From assembly GCA_964387845.1 (NCBI GenBank), contig CAYLXA010000009.1:32001-96000 (forward strand): DNA of 64,000 bases. Reading direction: 5' to 3'. The stretch is from an uncultured bacterium (lineage in GTDB: Bacteria; Omnitrophota; Omnitrophia; Omnitrophales; Abzuiibacteriaceae). Numbering within the stretch: position 1 is the first letter of the stretch; every line of letters starts with the position of its first letter. The notes beneath the pieces were generated by a model. It had not been told where the DNA came from. It made no database searches and worked only from the letters and a program-made list of their open reading frames with translations. Positions 1-51,347 of the stretch are shown piece by piece. The translations under genes were made by a program, and so were the position numbers.

Positions 1-3000
1 TTGGACCGTACCGCAGCTCTTTTAAAAGGTTGCCCTTGTACAATTTGAGCCGTACAAATTCACCAAAAGTTAAATCTTGAACAAACTCTTTCATCTTGAT
101 ACGGATATCAGGATCGTCACTGAAAAAATAAATTCCTTCCAAAACCGCAAGCGGCTCCGGATAGAAAACGCTTTCACGCTTGTACATTTCAAACATCCTG
201 TCTCTTGCTTGGCCATATTGCTGCGCGCTCAGCAATGGCTCAATAAATCCGCGCCAGTCATCGATAAAGGCCGGCGCTTGTTTTTTGATGTTTTCAGAAA
301 CTGACCCACGCAAGCGCGAATCTATGGTGTTGTAGAACGCATCCTTGTTCGAAAACGAATAACCGGCGCCGATTGTATTCAAAAATAATGCGAGATAAGT
401 CAATACGAAGGAAGTGGCGGATGTAAACCGGCCGGAGCGCGGGGTTTTTCGGAATGTTTTGATTAAATAGAAGCCGGATGAAGCGACGCCGACCGCAATG
501 GCCGTCACAACGGCTTTAAGCCCGAGCGGATAAATGATTAAATAAAATGGGTACGCAAAAAAGAAAGCACCTGAAACCAACGCTGCGCCTGTAATCAGCT
601 TTCGGACCGGAGAACTCGCAAGTTGAGGCGTCCACCACAAATACAGAAGCGGGATTGAAAATACAAAAGGCAGTGTCCATTCCATACCGACTCCGGTAAA
701 CCGGTTGAAGAAATAAAAATCACCGGGCGGCTTCAGGTAATTTTGCGTGTTATGGACCATGCGCCGCCAATTCGTTACGGCCGTCCAGGCAATCACCATT
801 TCCCATAACCGGATCCGGAACCGATACTGGGCCATATTAACTTTGTGGAGGACTTTAGCAGTTAGAATCAGTGATAACATCATCGCGGTATCTGCGATAT
901 GGCCGCCGATGTAATGAAGTGTATAAAAAAACTGCGAAGGCACCATGCCGGGAATTGGGTCTGCGTGAACATGGTCTGAATAACTCCGGAGCCCCATAAA
1001 ACTTGTCCAGGAAGGGTTATTCCAAAATTCCATAATCCGGTCCCAGTAAGGAAGTTCGATCCTGAGATTTTTATAGGTATCAGAAAGGAGAAGCTTGCCG
1101 AAAGCCCAATGACCGACGCCGTGAAAATACATGTCGAGCGGCCGGATCATGGTAATCCAAATCGTAAATGCCAGCGGTGCTTGAACCAAAGTATGCCACC
1201 TGAAATATCTTTTAAATGCAAAGGTTAACTGCTCCAAAAATTTTTCTAATCCTTCCGGAATTTCAACTTCTTTAGCATCCATGCTTGGGACTTCCGGTTC
1301 AGTAGGAATCAGCGGTTCAAGATTGACTGCTTCTGATTTCGGTAAGGGTTTGGCCGGCTTCACGACCTGCCGAAGTTCGCTCCGGGCTTCCGACCGAGAC
1401 TGAATAAAATCTGGAAAAATTTCACTCAGGGTTGATTGCGTAAAATCTTGCGGATTGGCGTATTTTTCTTGATAAGACCATCGCTCAAATTCAGATCCAA
1501 AAATACTTTCAAGAAATTGACTGTCACGTTCTGCAACCTTCTCCGGCAGAACAGCAATTAAGAATGACGGGTCCGCCAATAACCGTTCGGACATTCGTTT
1601 GTAAATTAATTCATTAATAGCGAATATTTCAAGCTCGCCTTCATCAGTTCCGCGCCAAGGCGACCGAAGGCCCTTTTGATTCCATTCAGAACCATCAATT
1701 GCAAATAACTCACGCAATAATTCTATAATCTCCTCACGCGATATCTTTTGGCCTGTTTCCTTGCCTGTGCTATCGACGGCTTTCAAATTAACAAACATCC
1801 GCGCCATGTAGTAAGGTATCGATTCCTTGCCTTCGCCCGGAAAAATATTTTTTGATATCGTAATATCCGTTGGCCGAAATAAAATTTCAGAATCATGAAG
1901 GCGTGCATCCAGCATGGCAGCCAAACCCCATAACATAAAATCTCTTTCGGTCGCCTGAATTAATTGTCCGGCATAGCGCGGGGTTGATTCTAAAGCTTTC
2001 CACCCCTGAGTTTTAGATTGAGCTACGATGAGCGGGATAAAATGCCTGACAGATTTCACCAGCAACTCATTATCAAGCGCTTGATAATCTGACTTAAATT
2101 TTTCAAAATGCATCCCGAAAAGCCGCAAATGTATCACGAGAGCAAGCCCCCTCACCCACCAAGTCAATAATTGATCGCTCAAAGATCCTCCGGCAAGCTC
2201 GGTAATCTCGTCTTCACTTGCAAACCAGGCAACCGGCTCTGTGATATCTTCATTCAAGAAAACCAGGTGCTGGTTGATACGGCCGTGGACCTGATCCCAA
2301 TTTCGCTTTCTCCAATAGGCCCTTAGTTCGTTCCCAATATTTTTTAAATCATCTTGCCCAAAACTTGGTTCAACCGCCTCGCTCCGCCGCGCTTCTATTT
2401 GAAGCAGTTCGCGTAATTTTTCCCGAAGAAATTCCCAAGATTGCCTTGCATTATCCAATTCATTTCGCCCTGAAAACTGATCTAACCGCTCTAGGACCGC
2501 ATCAAGCCAAATATTTGCGTCAAATCGATCAACAACACCGGGAGCTCTCAGAAGCTCAACGCCTGAATGAATCTGCCGGAGTTCGCTTCGGTAATAATTG
2601 GCAACAGCAGGAGGCAACAACCTCAGATTAATTCGGCCGAAAGACGGCGGTGTCACGGTTGAAGTCGGCTGAAGCGACATGACTTTGGCATAAGTATCAT
2701 CACGGTCAAGTTCGTGAATCCTGGGAATAACCGAAATATAGGAAAGATTGTTTTTGGTGATCAGTTCCTTAAGGCCTTCTTCGTGAAATCCGCCGGTCAC
2801 AAGCACGACCTTTTTATGCTTGTGCCGTTTCATGGTTTCTTTCAGATTTTTGAAAATAATTTTTTCCCGCAGCCGTGCGGTTTTATAGAAACGGAGGGAT
2901 TGCTTGATCAGGGCATCTGGTATCTGGTATCTGGTATCTGGTCTTCGATCAACTAGATACGAGATACTAGATACTAGATACGATGTTTGAATTTTTACGA

Positions 3001-4211
3001 GTTCATCCCGCGTCAATTCCAAATGAAACAGCTTGTTCAGGAGATGAAGGTCTTGAAACGCCCGGAGAATTTCTTTTTCTGCCTCCGTTTTGGCAAGCCG
3101 GCCGAGAAGCCGATCCGTAAGCTGCTCGATTTCGCCAAACAGAGCAGCTGCGTTCAGTTCCTGCGTGAGAATAATCCGGCCAAGCTCTTTCGATACTGCC
3201 GGAAAATCTTTAAAAGAAAATCCTTTGGCATGTGCTTTTGCATAAAAGGACTCCAGAAAGGCCCGTATCTGGTATCTAGTATCTGGTATCTCGCGGGCAG
3301 AGAGAAACTGATCAAATGATGCAATGAATGATTCAAAGTGATTCGCCTTGAGCCATTCAAAAAGCTTTGCTTTTTCACTAGATACTAGATACGAGATACT
3401 AGATACATCTTTTTCGAGTTCTTTGAGCTTAAAAAAGCGAACCAACTGCGGAAAATCGATTTGATGAATAGGGTCTGTAAGGTCAAGATCAAGATGCTGC
3501 TTTGAAAATTCCGAAAGCACGTTCAGGTGCGATAGCAACTCGCGCTTATCATCCTGAAAAAGAAAATAATCCTTCGTAAATTTGTAAAGCGCAGGATTGA
3601 AAACAAGGGATGCCTTTTTGGATAATTCTAATTTTTCTGTGCTGACCCACTCCTCGGCTTCATCCAGATGCCGGTACACTTTCCGGAACTGCGCCAGGTT
3701 GCGTTTGTAAACGCCGAGACTCTCGCTTCCGAATCCGGAGTAATCGTTTGACAATAGAAGAAGCTCCGGACCGCCGATCAAACCTTTCTCCAAGAGCTTT
3801 CGATTGATTTTGTTGTTCTGTTCTTCGTTCTCTGTGAAACGTAAAAGATTGTTTGGAATGTTGCCGGCAAGGCCGCCCTCCAAATACAACGTGTCGACTT
3901 TGTATTCCTTCTTGAGATGTTGAAGAATTTTTTGAATATTCTCTTGAGCGCCCAATTCACTGTGAGCGTCTTGGATGTGGATGACCAGCGGTAAGTCGTA
4001 AGTGGTAAGTGGTAAGTTTTGACCACCTGAAATAATCTCTTTTACTTCACCGAATTCTTCGGGAATGTGGAAAGAAACGGGCGGATTGAGTTCGACGCCT
4101 TGCGCGTAAGCAAGCGTGGAATTTAGCGTGAAAGCGATCAGCACAAACACACTAATCGCCTTGAGTATTAACAGATTCGGTTTTTTTATCGATATATTCG
4201 GTTGGTTCAAG
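1..4211 (-). CDS. Giant multidomain gene whose 3' end lies beyond the window start. It has a signal-peptide-like leader, a TraB/GumN/Tiki-like domain (GxxH motifs IQDAHSE and VTGGFHEEG) that is paralogous to the 524-aa gene at 49773..51347, two RSELR-delimited modules, and a C-terminal polytopic membrane domain containing HGVGHWAF. The start is tentatively TTG at 4209..4211.
   Basis: I translated the minus strand by hand: one frame is stop-free from 4211 to position 1. It is missing from the ORF track because no stop occurs inside the window. N-terminus: NQPNISIKKPNLLILKAISVFVLIAFTLNSTLAYAQG. RSELR is encoded at 2576..2590 and 1371..1385. Confidence 0.7.
2915..2985. repeat. In-frame palindromic heptamer element (GGTATCT/AGATACT type) inside the truncated giant gene.
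   Basis: catctggtatctggtatctggtatctggtcttcgatcaactagatacgagatactagatactagatacgatg. Translates as TSYLVSSISYLVDRRPDTRYQIPDA. Confidence 0.7.
3264..3407. repeat. Split copy of the GGTATCT/AGATACT palindrome. The arms at 3264..3292 and 3377..3407 are separated by 84 nt of coding sequence.
   Basis: gtatctggtatctagtatctggtatctcg ... cactagatactagatacgagatactagatac. Confidence 0.65.
3990..4017. repeat. Single arm of a GTAAGTG-family element embedded in frame near the 5' end of the truncated giant gene.
   Basis: ggtaagtcgtaagtggtaagtggtaagt. Translates as NLPLTTYDLPL inside the TraB-like domain. Confidence 0.65.
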
Positions 4212-4213
4212 AC

Positions 4214-4246
4214 ATAAAAAATAAGCCCTTCCCTCAAGGGCTTATC
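4214..4246 (-). terminator. GC-rich hairpin aagccct-tccctc-aagggctt followed by a U-tract on the minus-strand RNA. It could be an intrinsic terminator after gpsA or a leader structure before the next gene.
   Basis: Perfect 8-bp inverted repeat at 4224..4244, flanked by an A-run at 4216..4222 on the plus strand (U-run on the minus-strand RNA). Confidence 0.5.
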
Positions 4247-4255
4247 GATGTGAAA

Positions 4256-4284
4256 GTATACCTTATTATTAGGTGTAATTCAAG
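4256..4284 (-). promoter_or_regulatory. Candidate sigma70-type promoter, TTGAAT-17 nt-TATACT read on the minus strand, for the downstream giant gene.
   Basis: The plus strand reads agtata at 4256..4261 and attcaa at 4279..4284, with a 17-nt spacer between them. Confidence 0.35.
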
Positions 4285-4331
4285 GCGGGATGAGATATTT
4301 TTACGGATGTAAATCGTTTATTAACATAGAT

Positions 4332-4393
4332 TTAAGTCGTAAGTGGTAAGCTAATCGAGCAACTTAAAACTTACAACTTATCACTTAAAACTT
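4332..4393. repeat. Heptamer-based palindromic intergenic element of the GTAAGTG/CACTTAC family.
   Basis: Left arm taagtcgtaagtggtaag, right arm cttaaaacttacaacttatcacttaaaacttg. Sits between the gpsA stop and the downstream hairpin. Confidence 0.75.
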
Positions 4394-4397
4394 GCCC

Positions 4398-5429
4398 CTA
4401 ACGCTTACCGAGGGAATAGGGCCTTAATTCTTCTTTCGGCTCCCGGTCGAGGAGATCCTGAACGGCTCGAGCAGCGCTCTTGCCTTCAAAGAGGACGTTG
4501 TAAACTTCTTGAATGATCGGCACTTCAACGCGGTAGCGTTTGGCAAGCTCCATCGTCGAGCGCGCGGTTTCGACACCTTCCGCCACCATGTCCATGCCGC
4601 GTAAAATGTCTTCGATTTTTTCGCCTTTACCAAGCTGCTGCCCAACGCGCAAATTACGCCCAAATTCGGAAATACAGGTCGTCACCAAATCGCCGAAGCC
4701 GGCCAAACCGAAAAACGTGTTGGGATTGGCGCCCATTTGAACACCCAAATGCATCATTTCCAAAAGCCCGCGTGCTAGCAGCGCCGATTTGGTGTTGGAC
4801 CCAAATCCCATGCCGTCGCAAATACCGGCTGCAATGGCAATGACGTTCTTCACGGCAGCTGCGAGCTCAACACCGACCACATCGCTCTGAACATAAATCC
4901 GGAAATGATGGTCGCGAAATGTCTGCTGAACTTTCTCGGCCACTTGCTTATCGGGCGACGCCGCCACAACCAGAGTCGGAATGTTGCGGACCACTTCTTC
5001 CGTATGCGACGGGCCCGACAAAACGGCGAGCTTCACATCGCCGAGCACCGACTGGATAATTTGCGAAGGCCGCATGAGTGTTTTTTTCTCAACGCCTTTT
5101 GTCGCGCTGACTAAGATCTTTTTTGATAAATCACAATCGCGCATTTTAAAAAGTACGTTGCGCAAAAACTGCGAAGGAATCACGAGAACAATGTAATCGC
5201 CGAATTCAATGGCCTGATGAATATCGCTGGTGAACTGCAGACGCTCGGGAAGTTTGATTCCGGGCAGGTACTTTGGGTTTTCCCGCTTGGTGCGGAGAAT
5301 TTCGACATATTCTGAAAAAGCGCTCCAAAGCATCACGTCGTGGCCGATGCGTTCGCTGACCATGGCAAGTCCGGTTCCCCAGCCGCCGTCTCCGAGCACT
5401 GTGACTCTTGTTTTACGCTGAATACTCAT
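4398..5429 (-). CDS. gpsA: NAD(P)H-dependent glycerol-3-phosphate dehydrogenase.
   Basis: VTVLGDGGWGTGLA Rossmann motif, NPKYLPG, SGPSHTEEV, GLAGFGDLVTTC and further family motifs along the full length. Confidence 0.9.
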   Translation of the reverse strand: MSIQRKTRVTVLGDGGWGTGLAMVSERIGHDVMLWSAFSEYVEILRTKRENPKYLPGIKLPERLQFTSDIHQAIEFGDYIVLVIPSQFLRNVLFKMRDCDLSKKILVSATKGVEKKTLMRPSQIIQSVLGDVKLAVLSGPSHTEEVVRNIPTLVVAASPDKQVAEKVQQTFRDHHFRIYVQSDVVGVELAAAVKNVIAIAAGICDGMGFGSNTKSALLARGLLEMMHLGVQMGANPNTFFGLAGFGDLVTTCISEFGRNLRVGQQLGKGEKIEDILRGMDMVAEGVETARSTMELAKRYRVEVPIIQEVYNVLFEGKSAARAVQDLLDREPKEELRPYSLGKR

Positions 5430-5750: not shown

Positions 5751-5774
5751 TTTTAAATTAGCGTTAAGGCAAAG

Positions 5775-5840
5775 TTTTAAGTGATAAGTGGTAAGTGCTA
5801 AGTTGTTCGATTAACTTATCACTTACCATTTAAACCTTAC
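5775..5840. repeat. Heptamer-based palindromic intergenic element of the GTAAGTG family.
   Basis: ttttaagtgataagtggtaagtgctaagttg / aacttatcacttaccatttaaaccttac. Confidence 0.75.
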
Positions 5841-6977: not shown

Positions 6978-7057
6978 CATAAGTGGTAAGTGATAAGTTG
7001 TAAGTAGGAAAAATAACTTACCGTTTCTCACTTAGCACTTACAACTTACCACTTAAA
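6978..7057. repeat. Heptamer-based palindromic intergenic element of the GTAAGTG family.
   Basis: cataagtggtaagtgataagttgtaagtagg / aacttaccgtttctcacttagcacttacaacttaccacttaaaac. Confidence 0.75.
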
Positions 7058-7645: not shown

Positions 7646-7650
7646 AGTGT

Positions 7651-7712
7651 TAAGCGGTAAGTTGTAAGTGGTAAGAAAAAACTTATCCCTTACCACCTAT
7701 CACTTAGCACTT
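7651..7712. repeat. Heptamer-based palindromic intergenic element of the GTAAGTG family.
   Basis: taagcggtaagttgtaagtggtaag / cttatcccttaccacctatcacttagcactt. Confidence 0.75.
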
Positions 7713-8783: not shown

Positions 8784-8811
8784 TTAGCACTCTATGTAGT
8801 ACGAATGCTAA
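8784..8811. promoter_or_regulatory. CIRCE-like HrcA operator: TTAGCACTC-N10-GAATGCTAA, one mismatch to the consensus half-site and a 10-nt spacer.
   Basis: Inverted repeat read directly from the sequence; it overlaps the promoter upstream of hrcA. Confidence 0.75.
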
Positions 8812-8816
8812 TGGGG

Positions 8817-8844
8817 ATTATAGCAAGGATTAGGAGAATTTCAA
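8817..8844 (-). promoter_or_regulatory. Sigma70-type promoter of the hrcA operon: TTGAAA-16 nt-TATAAT read on the minus strand.
   Basis: The plus strand reads attata at 8817..8822 and tttcaa at 8839..8844. CIRCE follows directly. Confidence 0.6.
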
Positions 8845-8850
8845 GCTTGG

Positions 8851-8926
8851 TTAAGTTGTAAGTGGTAAGTGATAAGTGCTAAGCAATTTGATTAACTTAC
8901 GACTTATCACTTATCACTTACAACTG
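8851..8926. repeat. Heptamer-based palindromic intergenic element of the GTAAGTG family.
   Basis: ttaagttgtaagtggtaagtgataagtgctaag / aacttacgacttatcacttatcacttacaactgaattaa. Confidence 0.75.
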
Positions 8927-8928
8927 AA

Positions 8929-18741: not shown

Positions 18742-18747
18742 GTTTTT

Positions 18748-18810
18748 AGTGATAAGTGATAAGTGGTAAGTGGTAAGCAACTTAAAACTTACCACTTACA
18801 ACTTACGACT
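18748..18810. repeat. Heptamer-based palindromic intergenic element of the GTAAGTG family, between the 5718-aa and 3270-aa genes.
   Basis: tagtgataagtgataagtggtaagtggtaag / acttaccacttacaacttacgact. Confidence 0.75.
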
Positions 18811-18816
18811 GAAAAA

Positions 18817-21800
18817 TTATGCGGCGCGTCCCAATTCGATAACGTTACGCAGTTCCGATCTTAAAGATTCCGCAATTTGAGTAATACCAAACGCATTAAA
18901 CAGCGCCTTGACTTCGCTCCGGCCGACAAACACAACCTGGCTTGCATAACGCTTCAGCATTTCGGCTGACGTTGCGTCACTTTCTTTTGAAGCAATAATC
19001 CTGAAATTCTTGGCACCCAATTTCCGAAGTTCTGAGCGCGCCTGGACAAAATCGCGCACAATCACAAAACGGTCTGAGTTTACATCCGCAACCGCGGCCC
19101 GGATGGCAGTTTCGCTGGCCGGATCAAGCGCAATGAGCGCCGTCGGATCGGCCGAATTTTCTAAAATAATCGGAAGTGCCCATAAGACATCCTCGTTAAT
19201 CAAAAGGCCTTCTGTCAGAATATTACCGACTGCCGTTTCTACCCCGGCGCCATCCTGCGCTTGCATAAATTGACGAATAGCCGCTTGAGGTTCTTCGCTT
19301 CTGGCACGGGTAAACTGCCTCCGGCCTGCTTCGACTTTCGACCTGATTCGTGTAGTAACGGCCGCAGGAATCATGGAAGACGTATCCAACGAGCCAAACG
19401 CAGAGCTCGGAACCGCAGTCAATCGCAATTCGGAACGGGTTTCTAGTTTCTGGTTTTTAGTTTCTGGTTTAAACTTGAAACTAGAGACTAGAGACTCGAA
19501 ACTTTCCTTACGAAGTTCGGAACGCTCCCACTTACCCGTCTTTTCAAGCGTGTGCTGCGCAATTGCGTGTTTAGTTTTAATCAAAGACCCCAGATCAAGT
19601 TCAAATTCCGAGGATGTTAAAGTATATGTACCCGAAAATCTGGATTCCAATTGCTGGATGCGTTCCACACCTTCCAGAACCAAAACTTTTGTCATGTTCA
19701 ACTCATGATCAGACTCAAGCCCGAGATCGATACGATGTTGGGTCCTGTTCACAACCGAAACGAGCGCAAAAAGTTCCGAGACCATTTTCCCGAATGCCAT
19801 AAAATAGCTTTGAACTTCTTTCTTATCTTTGATGGCTTTTGCCCCGCCAAACCGTTCTATAAGTTCTTCGCCGGCTTTTTCAACCAAAGCTGATACGTTC
19901 CAAACAATTTCCCAATCACGCTGAAGCGGGCTTTGGTCTGGAATATCCCAGCCTTGCAGCAATTGACGGTCATTCTTCCACACTTCGGATTCCAAATATT
20001 TGAGTACTGCCGATGCAATAACTTGCGAATAAAGGATTTCGTTGGCGCCTTCAAAAATCGTCATGACACGGGCATCCGCGTTAGTACGGGCGACTTGTTC
20101 TTCAACCATAAACCCCGCACCGCCGCGTTTTTGAACCGCTTCACTTGTCAAACGGTTCAGAACTTCAGAGCCCCACGCCTTCGCGGCCGCAGCTTCAAGC
20201 CCTGGTTCCGAAACACCGCCGTCAAAAAGCCCGGCAAGTGAATAGCTAATAGACTCAAGCGCATAGGTGTAAGCTTCCATGTCTGCAAGCGTTTCCTGAA
20301 CAGCGCCCCAATTGGCGAGCTGCGTACCGAACTGTATGCGATCGAGCGACCAATTTAAAGTTCTTTCAAATGAACGGAGCGCACCGCCCCAGCTTCCGGC
20401 TGCGACCGCCGTACGGCCGTGATTGAGAATCGACATGCCGATTTTATTGCCGTCGCCCAATTGGCCGAGCAGATTTTCCTTCGGAACCCGCGCATTCTCA
20501 AAATACACATCGACAGTCGAAGAACCATGAAGGCCTGTTTTGTGGTAGTCGTTGCTGATGGAAATGCCTGCCGCTTTGCGTGCTTCCGCATCCTTCGGGA
20601 ATTCAACGATAAAAACACTCTTCTCGTTTTCACCCGTCATCGCAAATACGGTCATAACATCCATGAAACGGCCGTTTGTGATAAACGCTTTTTCGCCGGT
20701 AATTTCATAATATTCTTCACCGGTCGTTTCATCTTTTTTGAGCACCGCTTTGGTTTTTAAAACCGATTCGCGGTTTAAGCTGTCTGAACCATGCGCGGTT
20801 TCAGTCAACGCGTAAGCGCCGATCCATTCGCCGGTCGCGAGTTTCGGCAGGTATTTCCGCTTTTGCTCTTCCGTTCCGAATTTCACAATCGGAAGCGTTC
20901 CGACACCGCCATGAACACGAACGAGAGAACCCACCGACGGATTGGCATACCACGCCCACATATCTGCCAGTGTTTTCATAATCTTTTTAAAGTTACCCAA
21001 CCCGTATTCTTCGGGAACTGACATCCCCAGCAAGCCCATCTCTCCTGCCTGCTGCAAAATGCCGCCCTCATCCTCAACTTTGACAGCGCCGCTATCAATC
21101 TTTTCGCTTTCCGGAACTACCGCGCTCTTGAAGAAATTGGCGATGGCTTCATTCATTGCATTGATTTCTTCATGACCGGCTAAATCTTCCGGAAATTGGA
21201 GCGTGCCTTCGGCCACATTGGCGCGGCCATATAATAGGAAGTCGCCGGATTTGGGCGTACTTTCGGCGAACGGTACCAGTGCTTTGTCATTCTGAGGCGC
21301 AGCCGAAGAATCTACGGTCGCAGATCCTTCGCTTCGCTCAGGATGACCGGCTTTTGCCTTATCCAGCACTTCTTTTTCCATCGCGTCCATCATTTTCAGA
21401 GTATTGGCGCGAATCAAAAGAGCGTTCTTTCCATTTCTTGCTTCATAGGTAACGGGAACGATCGGCAGTTTTTCACGCGTGACTTTGATTTTGTCAGCCG
21501 CGGGAGCAATAGCGCGGATGTCAATCACATCGCCCGGACGGATGTCATGATTAAAAGTAGCCAGATCGGTCACATTCAGTAATAAATGACCGGGAACGGC
21601 TTCCGCAGACATCCTGGCCGCTACTTTAATGGCTGCAAGAATATTGACAAGTCTCGGATCATTTGATTCGGCAATCACGCGTACACCGTTTAAATAATCT
21701 TCCGTAACCGTTACGGGCAGAAGGCCGCTTGGATTTTCATTTGGCGATGACGTATCTTGAATGCGCGGGCTTGCAGAATCCGTAAAATCAAATATCTGCT

Positions 21801-42200: not shown

Positions 42201-45200
42201 CCGTCTAAGCCCGGTTTTGCCATTAAAATGCGGACGGGCACTTTGCTTTCGATTTTCCGGATCGGCGCTTGCCGGCTCGTTTTAGACGGAAATACGCTCT
42301 TTTTAAAATCACCAAATACGCCGCGCACGGCATCCATCATTTCACCGACGGTTGCTTCCGCGAGCGCGGCTTTAATAAAGTAAGGCATCACATTTTCATT
42401 CTCTTCAGCTGCTTTTGTAATCTCGGCCAAGGCTTTCCGTACTTTTTCATTGTCGCGTGTTTGTTTCAGTTTTTCTAAATTACCCAAAACTTCGGCGCGG
42501 CGTTCCTCGTAAGATCCCATCCGCTCACGCAGCATTTCTTCGGTAATGTCAACTTTTTCCGCTTTTTCTTCCCTTACCCCTTGCCCCTTGCCCTTTAATC
42601 CTTGTTTGGTGAGTCTTTCTTCCCGCAGCATTCCTTTTTTGGTCACTTCATCCTGAATGGCGTCGCGCATGTACTGCTCGACCGCTTCCTGGCCTTCGGT
42701 TTCATTTAATTGAATCAAAAATTGAATCAGCGCCGCGGCTTGATTGATAATTTCATCCGTGTATTTTTCAAGCAAATAACTGCCGCCGTTCGGATCCACT
42801 TGCTTGTCTGCGATTTGCTTTAAAATTTCATGGCTTCTCAGCGCGACTTTTGCGGCATGTTCGGATGGCAGGCGCCTGTTCTCATCGTAACTATCCAAAT
42901 GAAGCGTTTGCGTGCCGCCGTCAACCGCAACCAGGCCTTCCGCCAAAATGCGGGCGATATTGGCCGGCTCATCCACCCCTTCCGGATCTCCTTTTAAAGG
43001 AACGCCTGAAGTCTGTGTGTGTACCCGGAACATCAGCGCTTTATTTTTATTTTCATCGCGTGCTTTCAAAATATGGCGGGCAATAATAGCCCACAGTTCG
43101 CGCGCAGCGCGGAACTTGGCGGTTTCGTAGGTTTTGGTTTCGCCGGTTTCGTCCATCAAAAGCGAATCAAAGAAAAATGAAAATTGCTCGAGCACCTGAT
43201 TCACGGTCACTTGGCTTCCCGGGCGCTGATTTTTGAAGAAATTCTGCGCATACAAAATCGCGTTCATCAGCGTAAACGCAACTTCCTGAACGGCCGATGA
43301 GCCGGCTTCGCGCATGTGATAACCGCTGATTGAAATCGTGTTGAACCTCGAACCTGCGAAATACTCGAACATATCGTTTGCGAGACGCATGGAGCCCTTC
43401 GCTGAAATACCGTAATTGTTGCGCGTGGTTCTTTCTTTGTTGTTGTCGTTTTGGACAGTGCCGCGGAGTGTTTTCTTGGCGAGTTCGATTGCTTCGGCTT
43501 CTGACAAACTGCTGTCTTTCTGCATGAGCCGTTTCGTGCCGAGTGCGATATACATCGCCAAAATCGGCCCTGCGGATGCGTTGATCGTCATCGAAGTGGA
43601 AACTTCGCCGTCTGTGATGTCGATTCCGTCAAAAATGGTTTCCATGTCGCGGATCGAATCGACCGGTGCGCCCTCGGTTCCGATGTTGTAAATCGCGCGC
43701 GGGTCATCGGAATCAATGCCGACTTGCGTCGCGTTCTGAAACGCCAGACTGAATGCTTTGAATCCTCTTTCTAAAAACAGGCGGAATCTTTCGTTGGTTT
43801 CACGTGCCGTGCTGTAACCCGCATACTGCCGCGGCGTGACAGATTTGTAAGTCGCAAATGCGCCCCGGCGGAACGGATATTGGCCCGGCACCTGAACGGC
43901 CGGTACATCGCCGAAATCAAAAATGCGCGGCACCGGCTGCGCTTCGTTGGGGTCTAAAAGCCCGATGCTGTAGATCGATTCGCCGCGCTCACGGAGGAAC
44001 TTGGACATTTCATGATCGGGATCCTCGGGTTCAATGAATTCAATAACACCTAGGTTTTCCGGCAGTTCCAAGACCGCTATTTTTAGTTTTGCATCTTTAT
44101 CTTCATATATAGGAAGGCCGAATGACGCCGCGCTGGAAACAGGAATCATGATGCTGACGCGTTCTTTGGCAATACTTTTTAACCTGTCGTCCTGAAGCCA
44201 GCTCTCCCTGGCTTTCTGAATCATGGGCTCCGCAATTTTTGAAATTTCTCCGGCAATCACCTTTTGATGGTGTGTCTCCCGGAGGATTTGCACCAAATAC
44301 GGAACCGATTGCTGAACGGTGATAAGCTCTTTCTCGGCAAGTTTTCTTTTAGTGGTCGGTTTTGTTTTTTGATTCAAATGAGCCAAATGCGCCGATATCC
44401 GGAGTAAAAGTTCTGAAAATCCTTTTTGTTTTTCGCCGGTTGAAACGGTTTGAACCGCAAGCGGCTGCCATCCGTCTTCACGCGCAGGCTGTGTTGAAAG
44501 ACCGGCTTCGAGGTCGTGAATGGCGACAAACGCGCGTTCCGTGTCCGCCTGGTTTAATACCGCAATATCGGGCGTTTCCATGGAACCTGCTTTCATGGTC
44601 TGAATTTCACCCAGATAAGCGGGACTTAAAGTCAAAAGAAGCGTGTCGGAAACTTTCCTGATTTCATCCTGAGTTTGGCCGGCGCCTTCGGTTTCGATCA
44701 AAACAACATCCACGCCCATGTGGTCCATTAATTTGGCAACTTCATCCGTCGTTTTGGCAATGCCGCCTTGGCCGTCGCGCAAACTGACGCTTCGGATCAT
44801 GACGCCCGTGTCATCCGCCAAATTACCCATGCGGTACCGGTCTACGAGAAATGCCCCGCCCGAAGAGTCTGATGACGGGTCTACGCTGACGATTCCAACC
44901 CGAAGACCCGTTCGCCTGATTTCGCCGGCAAGGTTTGCGATAAATGAACTTTTACCGACTCCGGGCGGCCCCGTGATTCCGATCCGGTAAGAATTGCGCG
45001 GCAGTTTTTGAATTTCAGAAACAACAACCGGCCGGATTTCTTCACCGGTACTTTCCATAAAAGTCATGAGCCGCGCAGCGGCGCGATGATCGCCTTGCTT
45101 GACCAAATTTAACAACTGACGGGTTTCCCACCAGATCAGCGGCATTGTGATACCGGATTTTCCGGAAGCGGCAATAACCCTTCTTTTAGCCGAAAACTTT

Positions 45201-49772: not shown

Positions 49773-51347
49773 TTATCCCTTACCACTGCTTTCGTCAGAT
49801 TCCCCTTTAATGTACCAGCGGCCGTTTTCCCATTTTTCCGTGAGCATGCGGCGGTAAAGTTCGGGGCCTTGGCTGAGGCCGACAGTCGGCGCGATTACGA
49901 CAACGTTAAAGCCAATCCGGTTCAGTTTTCGGATAAGGCGTTCTTTATGGAAACCGCCCGCGATTAAAACGGATTCGGGTTCCCGGTCAGCTTTGATTTT
50001 CTCCGTGAGATTTTCCACGAGCGCCTGGTCGCGCATGTTGGCGATGCGGTAAAAAGATTGAAATTCATCGAGTGTTTCATCCAGTTTCGCCAAATTAGAC
50101 GGTAACGAAATATTTTTTCCCTGCCCGCCGGCCTGCGCATTGAGAAAATTTTTCCATCCTGCGATTTTGAAGCGGTCGCGCTCGTCCATGAAAACCTGAT
50201 ACTGCTCAGGGACGAGCTCCAATTTGACAAGCGATTCCAGAATCACGAGATCGTTTGACATCCGGTAAACCCGCTTCCCTTCCGGTGTTTCCAAAAATGC
50301 GTCTGCAATACGGTCTGTGAGCTTTGCTTTTTCATCGAAAAACGCGAGCGAATCAATCTGATCCTGCTTCCTCAAATACGGAATAGCGCCTTTGACGGAC
50401 GGATACTTATTGGTATCGATCGAATTTTTTTCGGCAAGTTCGATTAATTTTTCGTAAAAATCGGCGCGCTTATTGGCGTCTTTCTCAACGCCGTGTTCCG
50501 TATCCAAAACCGCGCGCAGTTCTTTGGCATCGACGCGGCGCTGCATCTCACGGACCAATTGTGTGCGCTCGTAATCGACTTTTTCGAAATCGGCGGTAGA
50601 TTCCAATTTAATCAAACTGGAAAGCACTTCGACGTTCGGATAATCCGAAATCGAGATATTTTTCTTAGCGGCGAACTGAAAAAGAAGTTTGGCTTCCTGG
50701 TGCAGGTTGTGTTTGGCTGTAAAATCCTCAAGCTGGGTTTCAAATTCTAAAAATTCCTTCGGATAGAGACCGGGCTTGACGGCATTCACCGCAATCCTGA
50801 CCTGTTTGAGCTGGTCTAGCATGTTCTGCATGAGCGGCTCAACTTTGGTAAATGCAATCAGGTTTTCGTCATACAAAACCTGGCTTTCGATTCCCCACAA
50901 GAGCAACGGATAGTCTTCCGTGAAGTTTAAATATTCTTCTCCCGAAATTTTGCCTTCGCGCATCAGTTTGGTGCCGATTTCAACGCGTTTCTCCTTAGGG
51001 CCCACGCGGTATTCCGACAAACTCACATCGCCGATTCCGCCTTCGACCAAAACAAGCCGGATGTCGCGCGCTTTGTGGAGCGACTCGATGATTTTTGCCA
51101 TCGCTTTTTGAGCTTCAAAATTAACGTGTGCGTCTAGGATATAAAAGATATTGAAAGGCTTTGAGCCCGGATGGTATTCCGAAATGCGGCCGGTTTCTTC
51201 GGGAATCTTAATCTGCGCGATATCGGCAGGAAGCGACACTTTGGAGCTTGCTGAGTAAAGTTCAGGGGCGCCTAAAAAACTCAGGGAAGCTATCAGAGCT
51301 AGGCAAATTGCGGTTGTGCGAAAACGTGGAGTGAAAACCATATGCAA
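49773..51347 (-). CDS. TraB/GumN/Tiki-like putative hydrolase or protease with an N-terminal signal peptide. It is paralogous to the N-terminal domain of the truncated giant gene at 1..4211.
   Basis: ILDAHVNFEAQKAM...LVLVEGG and VLIAGGFHKERLIRKL correspond to IQDAHSELGAQENIQ...LYLEGG and VLVTGGFHEEGLKEL in the other gene. It has no RSELR motif. Confidence 0.6.
   Translation of the reverse strand: MHMVFTPRFRTTAICLALIASLSFLGAPELYSASSKVSLPADIAQIKIPEETGRISEYHPGSKPFNIFYILDAHVNFEAQKAMAKIIESLHKARDIRLVLVEGGIGDVSLSEYRVGPKEKRVEIGTKLMREGKISGEEYLNFTEDYPLLLWGIESQVLYDENLIAFTKVEPLMQNMLDQLKQVRIAVNAVKPGLYPKEFLEFETQLEDFTAKHNLHQEAKLLFQFAAKKNISISDYPNVEVLSSLIKLESTADFEKVDYERTQLVREMQRRVDAKELRAVLDTEHGVEKDANKRADFYEKLIELAEKNSIDTNKYPSVKGAIPYLRKQDQIDSLAFFDEKAKLTDRIADAFLETPEGKRVYRMSNDLVILESLVKLELVPEQYQVFMDERDRFKIAGWKNFLNAQAGGQGKNISLPSNLAKLDETLDEFQSFYRIANMRDQALVENLTEKIKADREPESVLIAGGFHKERLIRKLNRIGFNVVVIAPTVGLSQGPELYRRMLTEKWENGRWYIKGESDESSGKG

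Follow-up and report, generated by a model that had tools for sequence, protein, structure and literature searches.

How can several short palindromic repeats lie within one domain of a protein-coding gene and leave its reading frame intact? The question is raised by a 64,000-nucleotide stretch of DNA (hereafter the window) from an uncultured bacterium of the phylum Omnitrophota (family Abzuiibacteriaceae; GenBank assembly GCA_964387845.1, contig CAYLXA010000009.1, positions 32,001 to 96,000), in which the N-terminal domain of a giant gene carries arrays of 7-nt units. Our answer, to which we give a probability of roughly 55%, is that heptanucleotide arrays, mostly paired as hairpins, spilled from intergenic spacers into tolerant parts of this domain and were kept only where they could be translated.

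Heptamer arrays in the giant gene

The giant gene lies on the minus strand, where a single frame is open from position 4249 to position 2 and continues beyond the window edge. A TTG at 4210 is its probable start codon and the N-terminus (KKPNLLILKAISVFVLIAFTLNSTLAYA), as judged from the translation, is signal-peptide-like. Just upstream of the TTG, positions 4283-4255 resemble a promoter, and the minus strand has a canonical intrinsic terminator (4246-4220; 11-bp stem and T tail); the interval 4220-4283 may be a leader or attenuator, or the true end of the gpsA transcript. Arrays were located with Tandem Repeats Finder (TRF) and a separate period-7 scan, and the giant gene has a single TAAGTG-type arm together with two palindromes of the GTATCT/AGATAC type, of which one is whole and the other has its arms 88 nt apart. 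The features are listed below, with their basis in brackets (HMM, hidden Markov model; AF2, AlphaFold2):

2..4210, minus strand: giant gene, N-terminal 1403 codons, running past the window start (frame, translation)
2663..4078, minus strand: TraB/ChaN/EreA-like domain, residues 45-516
3990..4017, minus strand: array D, a single TAAGTG-type arm, sense ACTTACC/G x4 (TRF, HMM, deletion scan, AF2)
3377..3406, minus strand: array C, the mRNA 5' arm of the split palindrome, GUAUCUN x4 (TRF, own scan)
3265..3291, minus strand: array B, the mRNA 3' arm of the split palindrome, NAGAUAC x4 (TRF, own scan)
2912..2981, minus strand: palindrome A, (GGTATCT)x4, a 9-nt spacer and (NAGATAC)x4 (TRF, own scan, folding)

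TRF assigns the arrays a period of 7, with 3.7-4.7 copies and 80-100% matches, and our own scan agrees. The arms of palindrome A lie at 2912-2942 (GGTATCT x4, perfect) and 2952-2981 (NAGATAC x4), array D was delimited by the scans as 3991-4017, and array B pairs with 3380-3406, in array C, over an 88-nt loop. Array D encodes NLPLTTYDLP (residues 65-74) in a loop that precedes the VIHIQDAH strand, array C DVSSISYLVSS (residues 268-278), array B EIPDTRYQIR (residues 307-316) and palindrome A SYLVSSISYLVDRRPDTRYQIPDA (residues 409-432). The original prediction had placed in-frame repeats at these sites, with the translation NLPLTTYDLPL for the arm at 3990-4017, and had described a 524-aa paralogue of the domain as free of them. 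All of this stands: five arrays were located, the frame is open through each of them, the translations agree with the sequence and no period-7 array was detected in the paralogue. Two of its numerical details were wrong, namely that the repeat spans are multiples of three, when they measure 28, 29, 31 and 71 nt, and that three 7-nt units give 21 nt, when the arms contain about four. The element GTATCTNGTATCT, allowing at most one mismatch, has 12 matches, all in 2913-3406, against 0.02 expected; across the window, 11 period-7 arrays were counted where 30 dinucleotide shuffles gave 0.1 on average, while the periods from 4 to 12 otherwise give 0-1, and the period-7 excess persists at lower thresholds.

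Survival of the reading frame can be traced to the arithmetic of a 7-nt unit and a 3-nt codon. Since 7 is coprime with 3, 21 nt of a heptamer array suffice for all three phases to be read, and every cyclic trinucleotide of the unit becomes a codon, so that only cores without an obligatory stop can persist in an open reading frame (ORF). The TAA inherent in the TAAGTG core bars a complete palindrome of this type from coding; the only coding-capable strand of this core is CACTTA, and the single arm at 3990-4017 is that strand. The GTATCT/AGATAC and GTTTCT/AGAAAC cores contain a stop (TAG) only with A as the free base, or T on the other arm, and then in one phase of three. As read from the sequence, the free bases of the sense arms are A, A, C, A in array A and A, C, A, A in array C, the single C in each occupying the phase that would give UAG, and the sole T among the free bases of array B is in a safe phase. 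Six intergenic palindromes of the window, described further below, have stops in all six frames, and palindrome A and a further in-frame palindrome (E, in a 5718-aa ORF) have no open frame other than the used one and its mirror. Frame preservation is thus a survivorship filter on arrays, and MacGregor has applied equal filter logic to TAACTGA repeats in Beggiatoa ORFs (PMC4679880). The same arithmetic makes the 7-aa peptide repeat frame-independent up to rotation, so that independent insertions yield look-alike peptides.

In the mRNA, palindrome A (2905-2992) is predicted to fold at -31.2 kcal/mol (z -7.7) and the split pair B/C (3258-3412) at -50.2 kcal/mol (z -5.3). Every seventh position of the sense-strand stems is mismatched, leaving 6-bp blocks between 1x1 loops, and the mRNA hairpin is therefore weaker than the antisense one in all three coding palindromes (antisense versus sense, -40.8 and -31.2, -55.9 and -50.2, and -38.9 and -20.2 kcal/mol). 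All ten transition-type mismatches in these three (2905-2992, 3258-3412 and 19430-19510) read A.C in the sense direction and G.U in the antisense direction, whereas the intergenic palindromes split 7:9 (Fisher p 0.02).

That the hairpins inside ORFs are selected mRNA structures, serving ribosome pausing, co-translational folding or export, or as processing sites, is in our judgement unlikely. The strength of the predicted hairpins, their rare codons, the coincidence of three of the four arrays with loops or linkers and their clustering in one domain would all suit such a role, but the sense strand forms the weaker hairpin, the paralogue and 154 homologues carry no arrays at these sites, and the same arrays are present in unrelated genes and spacers. 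All four arrays, moreover, sit within one TraB/ChaN-like domain and none between domains, so the earlier suggestion that the hairpins pause ribosomes between domains does not apply.

Insertion and replacement in the TraB/ChaN-like domain

The domain that hosts the arrays has an alpha/beta core interrupted by a large helical insert (about residues 165-462), and it is the fold similarity of this core that ties it to the TraB/ChaN/EreA/Tiki superfamily. Pfam has no match above threshold for the giant gene, the 524-aa paralogue reaches 18.9 bits against PF04187, under the 27.7 cut-off, and Foldseek, queried with an AF2 model of the domain (36-sequence alignment; predicted local distance difference test, pLDDT, 77.9; predicted template modelling score, pTM, 0.69), returned nothing significant. 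The family is very large, with 10,154 representatives at 50% identity (7,145 with E below 1e-30), mostly the N-termini of proteins 1-7.7 kaa long, and its invariant residues include D81 and H83 (IQDAH) and G473, G474 and H476 (TGGFH). The copy in the giant gene is divergent: it scores 181 bits with the family HMM against 300 for the paralogue. It is 24% identical to the paralogue (E 3e-22), and in a comparison with 5.8 billion proteins the best homologues reach no more than 24% identity. The paralogue itself is the following feature:

49773..51347, minus strand: 524-aa paralogue, free of heptamer arrays and with segments as long as is typical of the family (300 bits in the HMM)

Segment lengths were measured between conserved anchors with an HMM built from 154 family homologues. 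At site D (P50-D81) the query has 30 aa against a mode of 22, the HMM assigns 'nlplttyd' to insert states, and the best 8-aa deletion in a deletion scan is exactly LPLTTYDL (+7.3 bits); on this sequence comparison, array D is identified as a true +8 aa insertion in a loop, before the IHIQDAH strand, that is hypervariable in the family (21-46 aa). At site C (L232-E279) the query has 46 aa and homologues 37-38. Array C was considered as the source of these 9 aa and rejected, as the best 9-aa deletion is LDLDLTDPI (3467-3493) and dropping the array costs 1.3 bits; array C instead lies on ancestral match positions (net change about 0), with I272 and Y274 aligned to a conserved I-x-F. The segment 3467-3493 is itself a hexamer duplication (CTTGAT CTTGAC CTTACA) encoding LDLDLTDPI, and it is the strongest candidate for the 9 extra aa that set this gene apart between L232 and E279. 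Site B (L287-Y319) has 31 aa against 29 in homologues (net +2), and site A (D403-F441) 37 aa against 49 (net -12). The 88 nt between B and C encode the conserved E279 and L287, which makes the pair two arrays flanking ancestral sequence and not one interrupted element.

By this alignment, three of the four arrays (A, B and C) appear to replace ancestral sequence rather than lengthen the domain. The original description of all the repeats as insertions therefore keeps its force for 3990-4017 (+8 aa) and loses it for A, B and C, where no net gain is attributable to the array. The counter-possibility it had named, that the repeat segments are ancestral and kept in homologues, is half borne out, in that the positions are ancestral and the sequences are not. 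It had also expected the insertions to fall in loops. In the AF2 model array D does so (beta-hairpin loop 61-74), array B lies in a low-confidence loop (306-313) and palindrome A in a low-confidence stretch between helices (411-425; residues 411-430 have a pLDDT of about 50). Only array C departs from this, being placed inside a predicted helix (254-289) over conserved i/d/F positions. The arrays cover mostly weakly conserved profile positions.

The codons used in the arrays are among the rarest in the window (relative synonymous codon usage, RSCU, of 0.27 for CTA, 0.24 for ATA and 0.48 for GTA), with a mean RSCU of 0.77-0.95 in the arrays versus 1.12 for the giant gene, which points to an origin at the DNA level and not to selection on the peptide. 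It is accordingly very improbable that the encoded peptides (SYLVSSI, DTRYQIP, LPLTTYD) are selected protein motifs: array C does match the conserved I-x-F and a Y-L in array A a conserved F-I, but the arms encode unrelated peptides that are fixed by DNA complementarity, and poor codon usage goes together with low pLDDT and with peptides that are unconserved in homologues.

Array D, a clean +8 aa loop insertion, is also what would be expected of a mobile palindromic element, similar to a miniature inverted-repeat transposable element (MITE) or a Rickettsia palindromic element (RPE), that had transposed into the gene in frame. The several copies with a common core and a palindromic architecture fit such an origin, as do direct repeats of 6-7 nt immediately flanking array D (TGACCA, 3982-3987 and 4020-4025) and array C (CTTTTTC, 3370-3376 and 3409-3415), which might be read as target-site duplications like those of MITEs. 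Their spacings of 38 and 39 nt, however, disagree with net changes of +24 nt and about 0, which makes a target-site duplication an unlikely reading; these repeats may be junction microhomology or chance. No flanking direct repeats were found around A as a whole, the right arm of A, B or E, and a 5-nt repeat, GATCA, flanks the left arm of A. The termini are not conserved beyond the repeat units and the cores vary by locus, palindrome A, 70 nt long, is located where the query falls 12 aa short of the family, the B and C arms flank 88 nt of ancestral coding sequence including E279 and L287, and no transposase was seen. Together these observations make transposition an unlikely origin.

Heptamer hairpins after stop codons and in other genomes

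Related hairpins between genes provide the background to the spill-over that we propose. In the first 20 kb of the window, heptamer palindromes share one design, in which about four units of six fixed bases and one variable base are followed by a short spacer and an inverted array. Six of them, with TAAGTGN/NCACTTA units, lie 0-8 nt 3' of the stop codons of gpsA, dnaJ, grpE, hrcA, a 3288-aa ORF and a 5718-aa ORF. Their positions, and those of the two other in-frame arrays of the window, are as follows:

4328..4392: intergenic TAAGTGN/NCACTTA palindrome, 5 nt after the gpsA stop codon (scan, folding)
5772..5838: intergenic palindrome after the dnaJ stop codon (scan, folding)
6980..7055: intergenic palindrome between the grpE stop and the dnaJ start (scan, folding)
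7646..7711: intergenic palindrome filling the hrcA-grpE spacer (scan, folding)
8851..8928: intergenic palindrome abutting the stop of the 3288-aa ORF (scan; folding, z -9.7)
18743..18815: intergenic palindrome filling the spacer between the 5718-aa and 3288-aa ORFs (scan; folding, z -8.8)
19439..19502, minus strand: palindrome E, GTTTCTN/NAGAAAC arrays, in frame in the 5718-aa ORF (TRF, scan, folding)
42571..42593, minus strand: single in-frame (CCCTTGC)x3.3 array in the 4513-aa ORF (TRF, own scan)

The intergenic palindromes occupy six of ten spacers, two of them spanning the entire spacer to the next start codon, and are predicted to fold at -19 to -36 kcal/mol (z -3.2 to -9.7). Rfam assigns the hairpins to no family, with only sub-threshold resemblance to miRNA hairpins. 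A role as intrinsic terminators was rejected, as they have no T tails and none is among the terminator-like sites of a consensus scan, which flagged 4246-4220. Position and shape make it most likely that they act as intercistronic or 3' RNA hairpins of the type formed by repetitive extragenic palindromes (REPs) and bacterial interspersed mosaic elements (BIMEs). Palindrome E is located about 230 codons before the stop of the 5718-aa ORF, downstream of an acyl-CoA dehydrogenase domain, and the (CCCTTGC) array falls within the methylmalonyl-CoA mutase match of the 4513-aa ORF.

Comparable arrays are found in other genomes. The matches listed by collection scans place heptamer arrays of the GTATCT and TAAGTG types in many phyla, about 20% of the GTATCT arrays having an inverted partner nearby, and for DNA related to the window the listed matches hold nothing beyond repeats. 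Long ORFs of Clostridia and other phyla contain GTATCT palindromes that are not usable as coding cases, because such palindromes are intrinsically open in some frames and a spanning open frame does not prove coding. Some other Omnitrophota genomes have similar arrays with different cores, usually directly after ORF ends. In one (L099, JAQVOV010000064.1), single heptamer arms lie in frame at three places in the MutL gene (2937-4811); the interdomain linker contains two of them, and the third, within MutL_C, encodes DTRYQIRDTRY. The loop occupied by array D also contains heptamer arrays, (CCGATAC)n and (ACCTACN)n, in two further giant genes of this family from Omnitrophota (L240, 3194-3227; L245, 6259-6290). 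An ancestral loop insertion common to the query and either P0013 or P0066 is unlikely, and the position of the query in the tree, on a long branch amid relatives with 22-aa loops, indicates that array D was inserted independently of the arrays in the two other giant genes. Several further family members have a recurrent 19-aa insert ('STLRRG...LAQGESLPS') in the loop before IHIQDAH. These array-bearing comparison loci were chosen through the repeat or its peptide; no period-7 array is present in four Omnitrophota loci (75 kb, L241-L244) for which protein homology was the sole criterion of choice, which rules out a phylum-wide feature and makes the trait lineage-specific.

The occurrence of arrays in MutL and in spacers also bears on whether they are contingency loci, in which slippage by one unit would shift the frame and toggle a giant secreted protein. 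A unit length that is not a multiple of three, the perfect (GGTATCT)x4 at 2915-2942, and a product with a signal peptide from a large, fast-evolving family would suit phase variation. Against it, slippage is expected to be infrequent because there are only about four units, most of them interrupted at the free seventh base, and arrays are present in MutL and in spacers as well; we consider phase variation improbable.

Under the spill-over explanation, the four features would be heptanucleotide microsatellite arrays from a repeat population native to this Omnitrophota genome, whose hairpins would normally sit in the first few bases 3' of a stop codon. The copies in the giant gene would be by-products at the DNA level, with slipped-strand amplification of a 7-nt unit building the arrays and template switching copying one arm into its inverted partner; intrastrand template switching between quasi-palindromic arms could also fit the length-neutral overwriting. 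The arrays would have come to rest in parts of a divergent TraB/ChaN-like domain that are weakly conserved and mostly of low model confidence, and would persist only because they are translatable, any effects on translation being secondary. This explanation draws support from the period-7 excess, the six folding palindromes directly 3' of stop codons, the contrast in stops between intergenic and coding palindromes, the non-A free bases in the UAG phase, the rare codons, the weakly conserved sites and the divergence of the domain copy, and from the parallels in two Omnitrophota giant-gene loops, in MutL and in the published heptamers of Beggiatoa and Geobacter. The rivals (transposition, pausing, phase variation and peptide motifs) each have some support and each fail at least one test.

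Several observations weigh against spill-over. No GTATCT-type copy was seen in the intergenic DNA of the window, and the 3'-hairpin function of the spacer copies is itself inferred. Five of the eight coding arms lie within 1.1 kb (binomial p about 1e-7), a clustering that random spill-over does not explain. As three arrays appear to take the place of ancestral sequence, the mechanism would need overwriting or matched deletions. Finally, the mismatch asymmetry between sense and antisense strands could reflect selection on the mRNA against stable structure; stop avoidance together with amplification of one unit could produce it just as well. A more far-reaching proposal, that an active, lineage-specific process writes paired heptamer hairpins, their cores differing by locus, at the 3' ends of genes and can overwrite coding DNA at constant length by templated conversion, with the copies in ORFs, given the perfect (GGTATCT)x4 and the weakened sense-strand stems, serving as slippage-prone frameshift switches or translation modulators of giant secreted proteins, seems to us improbable.

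An odd-looking pattern is accounted for by an arithmetic filter, Omnitrophota join the lineages known for heptamer-repeat hairpins, and heptamer repeats can remodel protein segments in frame, here through one loop insertion and three apparent replacements of ancestral residues. Should the replacement mode be true, it would amount to small-scale rewriting of very large, fast-evolving proteins by non-coding repeat dynamics. The case also advises caution in annotation and in repeat-based inference from metagenome-assembled genomes, and by itself establishes no new regulatory system.

Other features of the neighbourhood are recorded here in their own right. The hrcA-grpE-dnaJ genes are preceded by a strong sigma-70-like promoter (8844-8817, minus strand; TTGAAA, 16 nt, TG-TATAAT), after which stands an inverted repeat like CIRCE (controlling inverted repeat of chaperone expression), TTAGCACTC-N9-GAATGCTAA (window 8786-8844). 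Between 8929 and 63955 lie minus-strand giant ORFs of 3288, 5718, 4513, 2595 and 1497 aa with ordinary metabolic enzyme domains inside them, as also in L243: a complete acyl-CoA dehydrogenase lies close to the C-terminus of the 5718-aa ORF, the 4513-aa ORF contains methylmalonyl-CoA mutase and a B12-binding domain, and a 6489-aa homologue lists HPr, radical SAM, PfkB, ROK, PRK and DHH domains. Many family members begin with the TraB/ChaN-like domain, of a protease superfamily, and a polyprotein-like organisation is worth testing. The 524-aa domain-only gene ends 14 nt within the start of the 4513-aa ORF (49773-49786), whose homologues have domain and giant body in one fused protein; the two genes may be a split, a translationally coupled pair or a frameshifted form of the usual fusion.

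Relation to known repeat systems

Heptamer arrays in ORFs and in-frame palindromes are both already established phenomena, although our literature search found no paper on heptamer arrays in Omnitrophota. The bacterial heptamer repeats described so far, including the cyanobacterial short tandemly repeated repetitive (STRR) sequences, TAACTGA, GGGAATC of Xanthomonas (PMC4692102) and GGACCGG of Geobacter metallireducens, in which elements of 4 x GGACCGG lie within and between genes (PMC2700814), share with the present arrays the short 7-nt units in about 2-6 copies and the period-7 excess. They are likewise mostly intergenic near gene ends, with some pairs inverted, and stop-free in orientation where they enter ORFs, as reported for the TAACTGA heptamers of Beggiatoaceae, which occur in ORFs in that orientation only (PMC4679880); more than one copy per gene has also been reported. 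With at least three head-to-tail units, a period-7 excess and a distribution that is mainly intergenic and stop-free in ORFs, the arrays of the window have the properties of heptanucleotide simple sequence repeats. They differ in their cores, which in the window are TAAGTGN, GTATCTN and GTTTCTN with a free seventh base and not the named STRR, TAACTGA or GGGAATC cores, in their default form, a hairpin palindrome just after stop codons and not upstream of starts, and in their host phylum, with complete and split palindromes translated through in frame.

With REPs and BIMEs the intergenic elements have in common that they are abundant imperfect palindromes in intercistronic or 3' operon spacers (six short extragenic copies in 20 kb), predicted to form stable RNA hairpins without a U tail. 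REPs are recognised by a conserved GTAG or CGTC head (PMC3733652), whereas the six elements have unlike ends and share no tetranucleotide head. The window elements are instead built of tandem heptamers, their cores vary by locus and some copies lie in ORFs; no REP-associated tyrosine transposase (RAYT) was seen within the 64-kb window.

RPEs, reportedly described by Ogata et al. in 2000, are said to be selfish palindromes placed in frame in Rickettsia protein-coding genes. They too are palindromic DNA in intact ORFs that adds a peptide to tolerant parts of proteins, and array D is exactly alike in this. RPEs, which have been reviewed (PMC10969869), are reported to form conserved families of 100-150 bp and always to be net insertions; the present arrays are 28-70 nt long, consist of microsatellite units and, in three of four cases, bring no net insertion of their own (D +8 aa, as opposed to about 0 for C, +2 for B and -12 for A). 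The window thus has in-frame palindromes within an intact ORF and no conserved 100-150 bp family.

Intrastrand template switching of the type associated with Ripley is said to overwrite one arm of a quasi-palindrome with the complement of the other at unchanged length. Such a process would account for arrays on ancestral positions and for the split B/C pair, although it is known for point or cluster mutations in short quasi-palindromes and not for 28-nt arrays across an 88-nt spacer. Set beside these systems, what remains novel in the giant gene is the clustering of five arms in 1.1 kb, the apparent length-neutral replacement and the strand asymmetry of the mismatches.

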